DNA of 64,000 nucleotides, from NCBI GenBank assembly GCA_045106775.1, contig JBGCFE010000041.1:9948-73947 (forward strand), read 5' to 3'. Source of the stretch: Halioglobus sp. GTDB taxonomy: Bacteria > Pseudomonadota > Gammaproteobacteria > Pseudomonadales > Halieaceae. Both the position numbers and the translations under genes were made by a program. The notes under the pieces were generated by a model, which saw nothing but the letters and a program-made list of their open reading frames with translations, was not told where the DNA came from and searched no databases. Of the stretch, positions 60,126-64,000 are shown in pieces. The number at the start of each line of letters is the position of its first letter. Positions within the stretch are counted from its first letter, which is position 1.

Positions 60126-60207
60126 ATGCAATGGTTTTGTTGCTTGTAAGCGCTTACAAACAGATACTTTATCCTCGGTCCTTGGGTCCGCTCTAGCGAG
60201 TTCTATT

Positions 60208-62991
60208 ATGGCTTCTACTGCTAACGTTTCGGATAAGACTGCAGGGCAGGGTTCGAAGAATGCCCCCATCGTTCTCGTCGATGGTTCCTCCTATGTTTAT
60301 CGTGCCTATCACGCGCTGCCCATGCTCACGACCTCCAGCGGTCAAAATACCGGTGCTGTTCGCGGTGTAATCAGTATGTTGCGCCGTTTGGTGGTGGATT
60401 ATCCAAACAGCCCCATTGCGGTGGTATTCGACGCCAAAGGCAAAACCTTTCGCGACGAGATCTACGATCAGTACAAAGCGCAGCGTCCGCCCATGCCGGA
60501 TGAGCTGCGCGAACAGATCGACCCCATACATGCGATTGTTAAAGCAATGGGGTTGCCTTTTCTCTGTGTGCCCGGCGTTGAAGCTGATGATGTGATTGGG
60601 ACACTCGCGCAACAGGCCAGCGAGCAGGGTAGGGACGTGATTGTTTCAACCGGCGATAAGGATATGGCACAGCTGGTCAACAAGCATGTGACCTTAGTGA
60701 ACACGATGACGGAAACAGTCTTGGATGAGCCGGCTGTAGAAGAAAAATTTGGTGTGCCGCCCAAGCTGATTATAGATTTGTTGGCGTTGATGGGTGACAA
60801 GGTAGATAACATTCCGGGCGTAGCCGGCGTAGGAGAAAAAACAGCATTGGGCCTGTTGCAGGGCATTGGTGGTCTGGACGACATTTATAAAAACCTCGAA
60901 AAAGTGGCAGAGCTTTCTTTTCGCGGTGCAAAAAAAATGGCACCAAAATTGGAGGCGGAAAAAGACAACGCCTACCTTTCTTACGAACTCGCCACCATCA
61001 AGCTCGACGTACCGCTAGAGGTAACGCCAGGATCATTAGAAAATGCTGAGCCGGATACGCAGGCGTTGGTCGATTGGTACACACGATTAGAATTTCGCGC
61101 ATGGCTCGATGATGCACTAGGGCAGGGCGGTTCAGCGGCAACACCAGCTTCGGGGGCCTCACCGGAAAAGCCGCCGGAAGTGGCGGTGAACTACGCCATA
61201 GTCACTGATCAGGCAGAATTCGAAGCTTGGGTAGCTCGGCTGGAATCTGCAGACTTATTTGCTTTCGATACAGAAACTACCAGCCTCAATTACATGGAGG
61301 CGCAAGTGGTGGGTGTGTCTTTCGCTGTTGCACCCGGCGAGGCAGCCTATGTTCCGTTTGGGCACGACTATCTTGGTGCGCCGGAGCAACTAAATCGCGA
61401 TGACGTGCTCGCCAGGTTAAAGCCTTTGCTAGAAGACGAAAACGCAGCGAAGGTAGGACAAAATCTGAAATACGATGCGAATGTGCTCGCCAACCACGAC
61501 ATTACTTTGCGAGGCATTCGTTTCGACACAATGCTGGAGTCGTACGTACTGGATTCAACTGCCACGCGACATGACATGGATAGTCTGGCTTTGAAATACC
61601 TGGGCCGCAAAACAGTTCACTTCGAAGACATCGCTGGCAAAGGCGCCAAACAGTTAACGTTTAACCAGATAAAACTGGAAGAGGCGGGGCCCTATGCCGC
61701 AGAAGATGCCGACATTACATTGAGCTTACATGAGGCGTTGTGGCCGAAGCTGCAAAAGCAGGGTGATTTACCTGCGGTTTTTAGCGAAATAGAGTTGCCA
61801 TTGGTTCCTGTGCTTTCGAAAGTGGAGCGCACTGGCGCTTTGCTTTCCCAGTCGATGTTGCATGCGCAGAGCGCTCAACTGGGTAAGCGGCTTGACGAGT
61901 TGGAAGGGGAGGCCTTTGAGTTAGCAGGCGAAGAGTTTAATCTGGGTTCGCCAAAACAAATTGGCAAAATTCTGTTTGAAAAACTTGAACTGCCTATTAT
62001 CAAAAAAACGCCCAAGGGTGCACCGTCGACGGCAGAAGACGTTCTGGTGGAGCTGGCTTTAGACTATCCGCTACCAAAGTTGTTGCTCGAACATCGCACG
62101 CTTAACAAGCTCAAATCGACTTATACCGATAAGTTGCCAGAAATGGTGAACCCGAAAACGGGGAGGGTGCATACCTCATATCATCAGGCGGTTGCTGCAA
62201 CCGGCCGCTTGTCATCGTCTGATCCTAACCTTCAAAACATTCCGATTCGAACGGAAGAGGGCAGGCGAGTACGCCAGGCGTTTATAGCGCCAGACGGCTA
62301 TCGCATCATGGCGGCGGACTATTCGCAGATAGAGCTGCGCATAATGGCGCACCTATCGCAAGACGATGGTTTGTTGCGTGCTTTCAAAGAAAACCAGGAT
62401 GTACACAAAGCCACCGCGGCAGAAGTGTTTGAGGTGAGTTTAGATCAAGTGTCCGGTGAACAGCGTCGCAAGGCTAAAGCGATTAACTTCGGCTTGATCT
62501 ATGGCATGTCTGCCTTTGGTCTTGCAAAGCAGTTGAACCTAGGCCGCAACGAAGCGCAGCAATATATCGATCGATACTTTGAGCGCTACCCGGGCGTTGC
62601 CGATTATATGGATTCGACCCGGGCGTTGGCGAAAGAGCAGGGCTATGTAGAAACACTGTTTGGCCGTCGCCTTTACCTTCCGGAAATAAATGCGAGCAAT
62701 AAAATGCGAGTGCAGGCAGCAGAGCGCACCGCGATTAACGCACCGATGCAGGGCACAGCTGCAGATATTATTAAAAAAGCCATGCTGGCGGTAAGCGACT
62801 GGTTGAACACCGGCGCAGCAGACGCCCGTATGATTATGCAAGTACACGACGAACTCGTGTTTGAAGTGGCAACAGGCCAGGCACAGCAGATAGCGGATGA
62901 CGTTTGTCAATTAATGTCAGGCGCGGCGCAGTTATCCGTGCCTCTGTTGGTCGAAGCCGGTATTGGTGATAACTGGGATGAGGCGCACTAG
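60208..62991 (+). CDS. polA: DNA polymerase I
   Basis: VLVDGSSYVYRAYH (5'-3' exo); FDTET (3'-5' exo); DYSQIELR; KAINFGLIYG; QVHDEL. Start set at ATG 60208. Confidence 0.98.
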   Translation: MASTANVSDKTAGQGSKNAPIVLVDGSSYVYRAYHALPMLTTSSGQNTGAVRGVISMLRRLVVDYPNSPIAVVFDAKGKTFRDEIYDQYKAQRPPMPDELREQIDPIHAIVKAMGLPFLCVPGVEADDVIGTLAQQASEQGRDVIVSTGDKDMAQLVNKHVTLVNTMTETVLDEPAVEEKFGVPPKLIIDLLALMGDKVDNIPGVAGVGEKTALGLLQGIGGLDDIYKNLEKVAELSFRGAKKMAPKLEAEKDNAYLSYELATIKLDVPLEVTPGSLENAEPDTQALVDWYTRLEFRAWLDDALGQGGSAATPASGASPEKPPEVAVNYAIVTDQAEFEAWVARLESADLFAFDTETTSLNYMEAQVVGVSFAVAPGEAAYVPFGHDYLGAPEQLNRDDVLARLKPLLEDENAAKVGQNLKYDANVLANHDITLRGIRFDTMLESYVLDSTATRHDMDSLALKYLGRKTVHFEDIAGKGAKQLTFNQIKLEEAGPYAAEDADITLSLHEALWPKLQKQGDLPAVFSEIELPLVPVLSKVERTGALLSQSMLHAQSAQLGKRLDELEGEAFELAGEEFNLGSPKQIGKILFEKLELPIIKKTPKGAPSTAEDVLVELALDYPLPKLLLEHRTLNKLKSTYTDKLPEMVNPKTGRVHTSYHQAVAATGRLSSSDPNLQNIPIRTEEGRRVRQAFIAPDGYRIMAADYSQIELRIMAHLSQDDGLLRAFKENQDVHKATAAEVFEVSLDQVSGEQRRKAKAINFGLIYGMSAFGLAKQLNLGRNEAQQYIDRYFERYPGVADYMDSTRALAKEQGYVETLFGRRLYLPEINASNKMRVQAAERTAINAPMQGTAADIIKKAMLAVSDWLNTGAADARMIMQVHDELVFEVATGQAQQIADDVCQLMSGAAQLSVPLLVEAGIGDNWDEAH

Positions 62992-63033
62992 GGCGGTTAC
63001 AGAATTTTTTCGAAAAAACTTTTCTATCTGGCA

Positions 63034-63060
63034 GAACTTTTGGCAGGTAGCCCAGTCTTA
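63034..63060 (+). promoter_or_regulatory. sigmaE/AlgU-type promoter
   Basis: GAACTT-16 nt-TCTTA; the established consensus is GAACTT-N16/17-TCTNA. Confidence 0.75.
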
Positions 63061-63066
63061 TATTGC

Positions 63067-63189
63067 GTAGTGAGAGCTACATCCCTAGGTGGCTTATCTT
63101 CATGGGCCACTGCGAGTACGTCTCTATCTCCAGGAGACATTTTTGAATGCCCCGGCCGTTTTCCCTAGAAACTGCCGGGGTCTTTTTTT
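63067..63189 (+). ncRNA. Candidate sRNA at the Spot 42 / ErsA position downstream of polA
   Basis: Promoter immediately upstream, three short hairpins, strong terminator with U tract; no credible ORF. Confidence 0.65.
63150..63189 (+). terminator. Intrinsic terminator
   Basis: CCCCGGC...GCCGGGG stem followed by TCTTTTTTT. Confidence 0.85.
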
Positions 63190-63219
63190 CTCTGCTTTAT
63201 ATTTCTCCGCGCCGTTCCA

Positions 63220-63292
63220 GGTTTGGTTCGTTAGGCGGTTACCAGTCGCTCCACGGGATTCGCTTGGTGGTAACCGCCTAACGAACCAAACC
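63220..63292. repeat. Hairpin 1: perfect 25-bp inverted repeat with 23-nt loop
   Basis: GGTTTGGTTCGTTAGGCGGTTACCA (63220-63244) / TGGTAACCGCCTAACGAACCAAACC (63268-63292). Confidence 0.95.
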
Positions 63293-63342
63293 CTGATATC
63301 GAAGTACGTGCAAATCTGATGTAAAACACAAACCGAAGAAAG

Positions 63343-63358
63343 ACTGCCCGTAGGCAGT
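63343..63358. repeat. Small hairpin between the two long hairpins
   Basis: ACTGCC-CGTA-GGCAGT; on the minus strand the loop is c(UACG)g, a UNCG tetraloop. Confidence 0.7.
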
Positions 63359-63374
63359 GCTCCGCAGCGAGGCG

Positions 63375-63441
63375 CCGGCGCGTGAGACGGTGATCACCAA
63401 GCGAATCCCGTGGAGCGACTGATCACCGTCTCACGTGTCGG
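63375..63441. repeat. Hairpin 2: perfect 16-bp inverted repeat (22 bp with G.U on + strand) with 23-nt loop complementary to the hairpin 1 loop
   Basis: CGTGAGACGGTGATCA (63381-63396) / TGATCACCGTCTCACG (63420-63435); loop CCAAGCGAATCCCGTGGAGCGAC. Confidence 0.95.
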
Positions 63442-63501
63442 AGCCTAGAGTTCACTACCACCTCTGGGCCCTATTCACGCGTAAGTAATGAAAGCTTATG
63501 C

Positions 63502-64000
63502 CTAGCTAGAATCGTCGTCAGCATAAACACTATCATCCGTCAGCCACCGATCCAGCACCGAAATAAGCGCCGGGTGCCCATCATGCTTAAGCGCAGAAAA
63601 TAACTGCGCCGTGGCCATGCCCTCAAACTGCTCTAGCGCCTTTTCAACCTTCAGTAGCGTGCTCTTAGCCGGCCCACGCTTCAGCTTGTCTGCTTTTGTG
63701 AGCAAAATATGCACCGGCATTGAAGCGGCCATCGCCCAGCCCAGCATTTGGGTATCGAAGGGCTGCAGTGGGTGGCGGACGTCCATCAGCAGAACCAGGC
63801 CCCGCAGGCTCTCGCGCCGCTGCAGATAGTTCTCGAGTTGTTTGGTCCACTCTTCTTTGACCGCCATGGGTACTTTAGCAAATCCGTAGCCGGGTAAATC
63901 AACCAACCGCTGGTTTTGGGAGAGTTCGAAGAAGTTGATCAGCTGCGTGCGGCCTGGTGTTTTCGAGGTCTTAGCGAGCTTCTTATTGTTGGTTAAGCTA
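63502..64000 (-). CDS. engB: Ribosome biogenesis GTP-binding protein YihA/EngB, 3' part (starts beyond window end)
   Basis: Frame stays open to the window edge: [17 protein letters not shown]...VDLPGYG...LTKADKL. Confidence 0.95.

Follow-up and report, generated by a model that had tools for sequence, protein, structure and literature searches.

Whether the polA locus encodes small RNAs in further bacteria is a question that the authors of the work on sX13 had already asked (PMC3771888), and it is raised again by the spacer between polA and yihA/engB in the stretch of Halioglobus sp. DNA analysed here (64,000 nt in all, hereafter the window): does this spacer carry an sRNA gene with a promoter of its own and, if so, to which of the RNAs known from this position would it be akin? 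The comparisons were made with a related strain, X4 (contigs of public DNA runs, depth ~63), and with 160 polA loci obtained by PolA-guided retrieval (80 genome loci and 80 metagenome loci), those with recognisable homologues of the RNA forming, together with the window, the clade referred to below.

Promoter, fold and surroundings of the predicted RNA

The polA–engB spacer of the window is 510 nt long; the predicted sRNA lies on the polA strand, and engB is convergent with both polA and the sRNA. Counted from the polA stop codon, the promoter begins 43 nt downstream and the RNA 76 nt downstream. The features are as follows:

60202–62991, plus strand: polA (DNA polymerase I), an open reading frame with its stop codon at 62989–62991 (NCBIfam PRK05755, 1211 bits).
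63003–63029, plus strand: A/T-rich stretch upstream of the −35, read from the sequence; it varies in strain X4.
63034–63039, plus strand: −35 element GAACTT of the sigmaE/AlgU (ECF) type; GAACT[TA] is invariant in 7/7 clade sequences and enriched after polA.
63055–63060, plus strand: −10 element (G)TCTTA, 16 nt past the −35; GTCnnA is kept in the clade, with a variable spacer.
63067–63080, plus strand: predicted start G63067 and 5′ hairpin 1 (GUAGU-GAGA-GCUAC), with an invariant stem and a variable loop; in six clade members the start is 6 nt past the −10.
63081–63087, plus strand: linker AUCCCUA, which both the MFE and the consensus fold leave single-stranded; it is the first of the exposed C-rich motifs.
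63088–63111, plus strand: hairpin 2, with the tetraloop CUUC at 63098–63101 and TTATCTTCATGG at 63094–63105, from the fold and from compensatory changes at four pairs in the clade.
63120–63138, plus strand: hairpin 3 (GUCUCU/GGAGAC) with the loop AUCUCCA, from the fold and the alignment; relatives carry AAUCCCCA.
63139–63149, plus strand: U-rich linker AUUUUUGAAUG before the terminator, unpaired or weakly paired in the fold, a candidate Hfq-binding module.
63150–63189, plus strand: Rho-independent terminator, with a GC stem and an inner stem, the loop CCCUA at 63163–63167 and U7 at 63183–63189, from the fold and from compensatory changes at four pairs.
63502–64000, minus strand: yihA/engB (ribosome-biogenesis GTPase; TIGR03598, 181 bits), with its stop codon at 63502–63504, running past the end of the window.

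The promoter elements stand exactly where the initial annotation had placed them, with GAACTT at 63034–63039, a spacer of 16 nt and TCTTA at 63056–63060, and no sigma70-like promoter was found in 62700–63700, where the ECF-type motif is present instead. In the window as a whole, the pattern GAACTT-N16/17-TCNNA is observed once against 0.8 expected, with at least one match in 54 of 100 shuffles, and the relaxed GAACTN form has only two occurrences on both strands of the 64 kb. Since the motif is at chance level in one window, the promoter motif alone is not significant, and its significance derives from its conservation in homologues and from its enrichment at the same position in other genomes. 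Judged by these sequence criteria, the promoter would most likely be recognised by a sigmaE/AlgU-type sigma factor. The A/T-rich stretch upstream contains a perfect A/T palindrome, TTTTTTCGAAAAAA, at 63005–63018, 16 nt upstream of the −35, in and around which strain X4 varies (63002, 63011, 63013, 63019); the stretch with its palindrome may be an UP-like element, or else a weak stem of polA.

The predictions that had been made for the body of the RNA were also borne out, in that GTAG begins at 63067, 6 nt after the −10, the stems GTAG(T)/(G)CTAC (63067–63080), GTGGC/GCCAC (63089–63093 with 63106–63110) and GTCTC/GAGAC (63120–63124 with 63134–63138) are all present, the terminator CCCCGGC/GCCGGGG is found at 63150–63156 and 63174–63180 with T7 at 63183–63189, and the length proposed at the outset, about 123 nt, is that of the predicted RNA, 63067–63189. 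When this segment is folded with RNAfold the same four hairpins are obtained, at −46.4 kcal/mol (z = −3.7; 0 of 200 shuffles equally stable), and the resulting molecule is highly structured, with almost no long single strand. Hairpin 3 together with AUUUUU (63120–63144) was itself flagged as terminator-like, by which a shorter isoform of ~78 nt would be possible; this U-run is not kept in relatives.

No terminator-like site was found in 62992–63119, a range that takes in the DNA between the polA stop and the sRNA promoter. As polA has no terminator of its own there, read-through from polA probably ends at the sRNA terminator, and for the same reason the RNA may also be embedded in the polA 3′ UTR, from which, and not from the promoter, part of it could derive. 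On the other side, the end of the RNA and engB are 313 nt apart in the window, a distance that includes two inserted hairpin repeats (63220–63292 and 63370–63446). These are long perfect hairpins, with stems of 25–27 bp and z of about −7 to −9, which have one and the same 25-nt loop, CCAAGCGAATCCCGTGGAGCGACTG, oppositely oriented in the two, and whose stems differ by compensatory changes. In the X4 run the contig depth rises 19–34-fold over the core of the CCAAGCGAATCCCGTGGAGCGACTG loop and many contigs break there; this would be a dispersed repeat, present tens of times in each genome, in which it is the loop that is conserved rather than the stem. None of the 160 related loci has it, and the two inserted copies account for the long polA–engB spacer of the window. 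A bidirectional terminator that would also serve engB was considered and rejected, because the minus strand has no T-run after the hairpin.

Conservation in relatives and across polA loci

In strain X4, the last 90 nt of polA differ from the window by four substitutions and the 42 nt before the −35 by five substitutions and one indel (~14%); the sole change in the promoter lies in the spacer, at 63045, with the −35 and the −10 unchanged, there are no differences at all across 63046–63302, the whole RNA included, and more than 20 appear in 63432–63517. Another contig, X5, is identical to the window except in the loop of hairpin 3 and for a tail longer by one U.

Among the retrieved loci, the nearest PolA C-termini are only 81–83% identical to that of the window, and their carriers are MAGs labelled Gammaproteobacteria and Pseudomonadales, followed by Halieaceae, Spongiibacteraceae and Cellvibrionales. 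Recognisable homologues of the RNA are present in L001, L081, L002, L085, L087 and L083, the last of which is cut by the end of its contig, so that the alignments comprise six full sequences and the promoter comparison seven. All seven have [T/G]GAACT[T/A] at the −35, GTCnnA at the −10 and GTAGC exactly 6 nt past the −10, with a spacer that is variable and ends in CCCnG, and with upstream DNA that is unalignable. The consensus obtained with MAFFT and RNAalifold contains the same four hairpins, and when the six full sequences are aligned under guidance of the model, 94.4% of the cells are paired, compared with 35–40% in slid controls. Compensatory changes occur at eight pairs in the clade, all of them in hairpin 2 and the terminator (hairpin 4), and the stems of hairpins 1 and 3 show no sequence change whatever. 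As for the exposed segments, the core A-CCC of the linker (columns A15 and C17–C19) is invariant in the six-sequence alignment, the CUUC loop of hairpin 2 aligns with CUCC in the relatives and in the broader family, and the CCCCUA of the terminator loop is kept in the relatives. L085 carries the RNA with its promoter ~870 nt past the polA stop (629–1501), compared with 40–110 nt elsewhere, and in L002, L001 and L081 the sRNA terminator lies 0–22 nt from the engB stop.

Over the whole set of 160 loci, the polA-strand spacers (59.9 kb) contain the strict promoter motif 27 times, where 0.49 would be expected from the 12 occurrences in the remaining 1.46 Mb (55-fold enrichment); for the relaxed motif, 71 occurrences, in 68 of the 160 loci, stand against an expectation of 1.9 (37-fold). 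These figures come from loci that belong to many families and are not phylogenetically independent. Very distant lineages have the motif in this place, directly downstream of polA and on its strand, in Endozoicomonas, Moraxellaceae, Methylococcales, Woeseiaceae, Porticoccaceae, Sedimenticola and Ketobacteraceae, among others. A covariance model built from only four clade sequences (R1) gives 35 matches, every one of them downstream of polA on its strand and nearly all of full length, and a second model (R2), built from 24 of the matches of R1, gives 80 matches at E<1, just three of which are not on the polA strand after polA; on many loci outside its training set, R2 reaches E values of 1e-8 to 1e-5. 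Taken together, R1 and R2 indicate full-length relatives in about 60 loci, each time in this same place, and in 53 of 58 model matches the promoter motif ends 0–9 nt before the modelled 5′ end. In the 24-sequence alignment 91.8% of the cells pair, which, as the alignment was fitted to the model, is an upper bound, and compensatory changes are seen at 29 of 30 pairs.

The RNA was not found where the polA–engB spacer measures 6–43 nt (L008, L010, L018, L080, L082, L098, L100), and these loci, several of them Halieaceae-like, suggest that it has been lost repeatedly in compact genomes. In Halopseudomonas L054, where ErsA would be expected, engB does not come after polA, and an sRNA was not seen either. 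Endozoicomonas has tandem copies, three in L012 (4239–4830) and two in L023 (4607–4980), each with its own GGAACTT-N16-TCTnA promoter; an ErsA-like seed, ACUCCUUGUGUGUUUAGUGUUGG, is common to them, and they fall below the RF01719 threshold. Two model matches in tandem are also found in L029 (1262–1650), likewise from Endozoicomonas.

With the promoter and structure of the six homologues and the enrichment of the motif, the central claim of the initial annotation, that the polA–engB locus, the site of Spot 42 and ErsA, here carries an sRNA gene preceded by a promoter of the sigmaE type, is supported as a prediction from sequence.

Described small RNAs and the Rfam families

When the whole window was searched with Rfam at the gathering thresholds no match was obtained, which agrees with the expectation that this RNA would have a sequence of its own; at E≤10 on 62900–63600 only noise appeared (miRNA models on the downstream hairpins, sX11, SdsR, anti-hemB), and neither RF00021 nor RF01719 was among the matches.

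The window RNA shares several features with ErsA (RF01719). Both RNAs lie between polA and engB on the polA strand, both have a sigmaE/AlgU-type promoter (GGAACT[TA]-N17-TCAGA in the six RF01719-checked loci), a 5′ hairpin at the start, a U-rich terminator and a length of ~120–135 nt, and ErsA likewise has C-rich loops in its last two hairpins, CCCCGCCCUAG and CCCCCUCCCCAUA. They differ in the promoter spacer (17 nt in ErsA, 16 nt in the window) and in that ErsA has a long unstructured U/G-rich seed, GCUCCUAUGUUGUGUUAAGUGUUGG, at nt 26–56 (PMC5819304), whereas the window has a closed hairpin 2, which is supported by covariation and bears no similarity to GCUCCUAUGUUGUGUUAAGUGUUGG. ErsA is an independent, sigma22-dependent transcript that binds Hfq and pairs at the ribosome-binding site of algC, and its targets algC, oprD and amrZ are reached through the U-rich unstructured region (PMC6321483; PMC5819304). 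The ErsA reference sequences used here are RF01719 matches in soil-metagenome loci, six of which score 110–133 bits, and the window RNA stays below the gathering score of 50 bits. R2, for its part, finds 12 of the 12 ErsA genes of the set (the six RF01719-checked ones included) at full length, with 25–32 bits and E values of 5e-4 to 9e-3.

The second described RNA, sX13 (RF02232), also lies downstream of polA, at 175 bp, and consists of consecutive stem-loops with the C-rich apical loops AUCCCCUG, UCCCCAAG and CCCCCUG (PMC3771888), which resemble the AUCCCUA, AAUCCCCAG and CCCCUAG of the window clade. It is an RNA of 115 nt with three C-rich loops that represses mRNAs with GGGG near the start codon, it accumulates under stress, in NaCl, at 37 °C and in minimal medium, it acts without Hfq and represses hfq, and mutations in its loops and targets show a dependence of the pairing type (PMC3771888). 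It differs in that the window RNA has an extra 5′ hairpin and C-runs that amount only to CCC, CUUC and CUCC, and in that sX13, according to its report, which does not state the sigma factor, is confined to Xanthomonadaceae and independent of Hfq (PMC3771888). The window RNA scores below the RF02232 threshold (at least 50 bits), without any sX13 match at E≤10 on 62900–63600. L081 gives a sub-threshold match of 20.9 bits, in which hairpins 2, 3 and 4 align to stem-loops 1, 2 and 3 of sX13. As regards the C-runs, those of the linker and the terminator loop are CCC in the window, where loop 2 reads CUUC and loop 3 contains CUCC; in the relatives, loop 3 and the terminator loop both carry CCCC, and with its weaker runs the window lacks the strict “4C” seed of the sX13 type.

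With anti-hemB (RF02837) are shared a length of ~100 nt, a first hairpin with a loop of the CUCCUCCCUGA type and a terminator at the end; this family, however, was defined in Betaproteobacteria, next and antisense to hemB (PMC1950547), and the neighbours of the window RNA are polA and engB. Anti-hemB is terminator-ended and is expressed in Burkholderia cenocepacia as ncS04 (PMC1950547; PMC5688073). The window RNA obtains 14.1 bits (E = 1.7), below the threshold of at least 49.5 bits, and the best two sub-threshold Rfam matches of L081 are anti-hemB (21.5 bits) and the sX13 match given above, its 13.4 bits against RybB being at noise level. Twelve other polA-locus RNAs reach 31–50 bits on anti-hemB, and two of them attain the gathering score, namely the metagenome polA-locus RNAs L134 (2138–2264) and L101 (2044–2133). 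L134 is matched at once by anti-hemB, sX13 (31.9 bits), Pseudomon-1/ErsA, alphaproteobacterial ar7, 6C and LhrC, all but anti-hemB below threshold; since 6C and LhrC, which are unrelated RNAs with C-rich loops, also match, the similarity may be partly one of shared architecture, or convergent.

Spot 42 (spf; RF00021) has in common with the window RNA the polA–yihA/engB intergenic position, the orientation and a similar length, yet no similarity of sequence or structure: R2 on Spot 42 gives E = 0.34, and the window RNA scores below the RF00021 threshold (at least 80 bits). Its promoter is of the sigma70 type, repressed by cAMP-CRP, and its seeds are single-stranded and U-rich (PMC3771888 and its references). 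The enterobacterial and Shewanella loci give RF00021 matches of 87–126 bits. In the Shewanella loci a second, weak R2 match (24–31 bits) lies ~90–110 nt further downstream (L017, 4644–4727; L024, 5185–5297; L027, 4909–4999; L036, 4658–4787), which in L017 is a hairpin with a C-rich UUCCCAAA loop and a terminator, no sigmaE motif being seen.

The initial proposal, a positional orthologue or analogue at the locus of Spot 42 and ErsA, can thus be refined: sX13 and anti-hemB come nearest to the window RNA in sequence and structure, ErsA less closely, and with Spot 42 no similarity was detected. By its sequence the window RNA fits the class of sigmaE-dependent sRNAs, having a sigmaE-type promoter, a short predicted non-coding RNA and an intrinsic terminator. 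In this class a sigmaE promoter gives rise to a short, terminator-ended RNA that represses the mRNAs of envelope proteins, by which the loop of the envelope-stress response is closed. A logic of this kind, as in MicA, RybB, MicL, VrrA and MicV of enterobacteria and vibrios, would be expected here too; those RNAs differ in their loci, sequences and seeds, the latter being 5′ and single-stranded. The window RNA is thus a predicted sigmaE-type sRNA at the polA locus, of the ErsA and sX13 sort, that belongs to no Rfam family as currently defined, and the comparisons point to a widespread and poorly annotated group of RNAs at this locus that would include ErsA and that resembles sX13. Among the papers of the library searched, none names ErsA and sX13 together.

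Proposed mode of action, rival readings and possible origin of the family

When 49 members of the family are folded singly, their unpaired positions are 37.6% C and 8.4% G, and exposed C-runs are found in every one of them (2.5 on average), exposed G-runs in none. In the window the exposed sites are AUCCCUA (63081–63087), CUUC (63098–63101), AUCUCCA (63126–63132) and CCCUA (63163–63167). The single-stranded loop of hairpin 2 had been put forward as the seed; it is indeed an exposed C/U-rich candidate, but only one of four, with just CUUC unpaired in the fold, and the conservation of YCCCUA, which occurs both in the linker and in the loop of the terminator, is no lower. A duplex-energy scan against 291 start regions of the window was uninformative, as it ignores intramolecular structure and has no genome background.

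From the exposed C-rich, G-poor loops across the family, a trans-acting pairing with G-rich ribosome-binding regions can be proposed, in the following terms: (i) an RpoE/AlgU-type ECF sigma factor would recognise GAACTT-N16-(G)TCTTA, with a start at about G63067; (ii) the intrinsic terminator with its U7 would end the RNA at about 63189, after roughly 123 nt; (iii) the four hairpins would display C/U-rich, G-poor single strands; (iv) envelope stress would free sigmaE, by which the RNA would be made and would act in trans; (v) the exposed motifs would pair with the G-rich Shine-Dalgarno or enhancer sequences of several mRNAs, which would then be translated less; (vi) and finally, the loops of the window would be a version weakened by C-to-U change, in which pairing with G would be kept by wobble. 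This mode of pairing would most likely be comparable, by analogy, to that of the CCCC loops of sX13 and to that of ErsA at the ribosome-binding site of algC. The U-rich 63139–63149 and the U7 tail would fit an Hfq module, again by analogy; Hfq is bound by ErsA and is not needed by sX13. The pairing, its targets and the participation of any chaperone are in this sense expectations derived from the loops and from the described RNAs.

It could be thought that the hairpins are no more than the 3′ UTR and terminator of polA, that the promoter match is coincidental and that the small RNA is a product of processing or termination without regulatory use, since no terminator stands between the polA stop and 63120 and a motif of this kind is expected 0.8 times per window; nevertheless, this is very unlikely when the −35, the −10 and the distance to the +1 are invariant in seven sequences whose spacer and upstream DNA vary, the motif is 37–55-fold enriched at this position in 160 loci, L085 has its RNA and promoter ~870 nt from polA, and ErsA, found by the same model, was shown experimentally to be an independent sigma22 transcript (PMC6321483). 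Transcription from this promoter might also run convergently, or antisense, into engB and interfere with it, past a leaky terminator and with the hairpins incidental, as the convergence of RNA and engB and the 0–22 nt between terminator and engB stop in L002, L001 and L081 would allow; we hold this to be highly improbable, given a strong terminator (GC stem and U7), the 313 nt that separate the RNA from engB in the window, and an RNA body that is conserved and covarying, which interference would not require.

The nature of the product has been weighed in the same way. SpfP is a small protein translated from Spot 42. An analogous reading here would be a coding or dual-function transcript in which the 14-codon ORF at 63102–63146 (MGHCEYVSISRRHF), with its ATG in the hairpin-2 loop and its end within the RNA, is translated, in line with the coding capacity of Spot 42 at the same locus (reviews PMC12310071 and PMC12612679). 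It was rejected as extremely improbable, because the ATG has no Shine-Dalgarno sequence upstream and is replaced in L085 (ACG) and L087 (ATT), L002 has indels that put it out of frame, and the substitutions follow base pairing, without a periodicity of 3 nt. That the RNA serves chiefly to bind a protein (ProQ, Hfq or a protein that binds C-rich RNA), whether as scaffold or as sponge, with mRNA pairing secondary, seems unlikely. Such a role could explain why the stems of hairpins 1 and 3 are invariant in sequence, beyond what structure conservation asks, it would suit a highly structured molecule with almost no long single strand, and sX13 both represses hfq and acts without Hfq (PMC3771888); against it, exposed C-rich and G-poor loops are the signature of the whole family, the mutations of sX13 show pairing-type dependence (PMC3771888), and ErsA pairs with algC, oprD and amrZ (PMC6321483; PMC5819304).

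The promoter and terminator elements, their conservation, the covariation of hairpins 2 and 4, the position of promoter plus RNA across gammaproteobacteria and the C-rich loops are all seen directly, and on this basis it is probable that 63034–63189 is an independent sRNA gene of the sigmaE type, the ~123-nt product of which would act in trans through its C/U-rich loops; its transcription and the identity of the sigma factor we infer from the same elements.

As to origin, the window RNA, ErsA, sX13, anti-hemB and the unnamed RNAs downstream of polA could be the descendants of one ancient proteobacterial sRNA gene located beside polA/engB, ancestrally driven by an RpoE-type factor and directing C-rich loops at G-rich ribosome-binding regions, Spot 42 being a later replacement in the same place or a radically rewired derivative there. 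This we advance tentatively, as a possibility that falls somewhat short of probable. If it were true, several Rfam families would make up a single clan, and control by sigmaE should extend to sX13 and anti-hemB; the comparisons suggest that a common clan could be made of ErsA, sX13 and anti-hemB.

In summary, a well-supported, unannotated and predicted riboregulator is added to a Cellvibrionales-like bacterium, marine or associated with plants. The polA–engB spacer carries the promoter-plus-RNA module in ~40% of the diverse gammaproteobacterial loci sampled, the type of promoter is the one that in Pseudomonas has been tied experimentally, through ErsA, to envelope stress, and the combination of this promoter with the position after polA offers a simple rule for the annotation of RNAs that Rfam largely misses.
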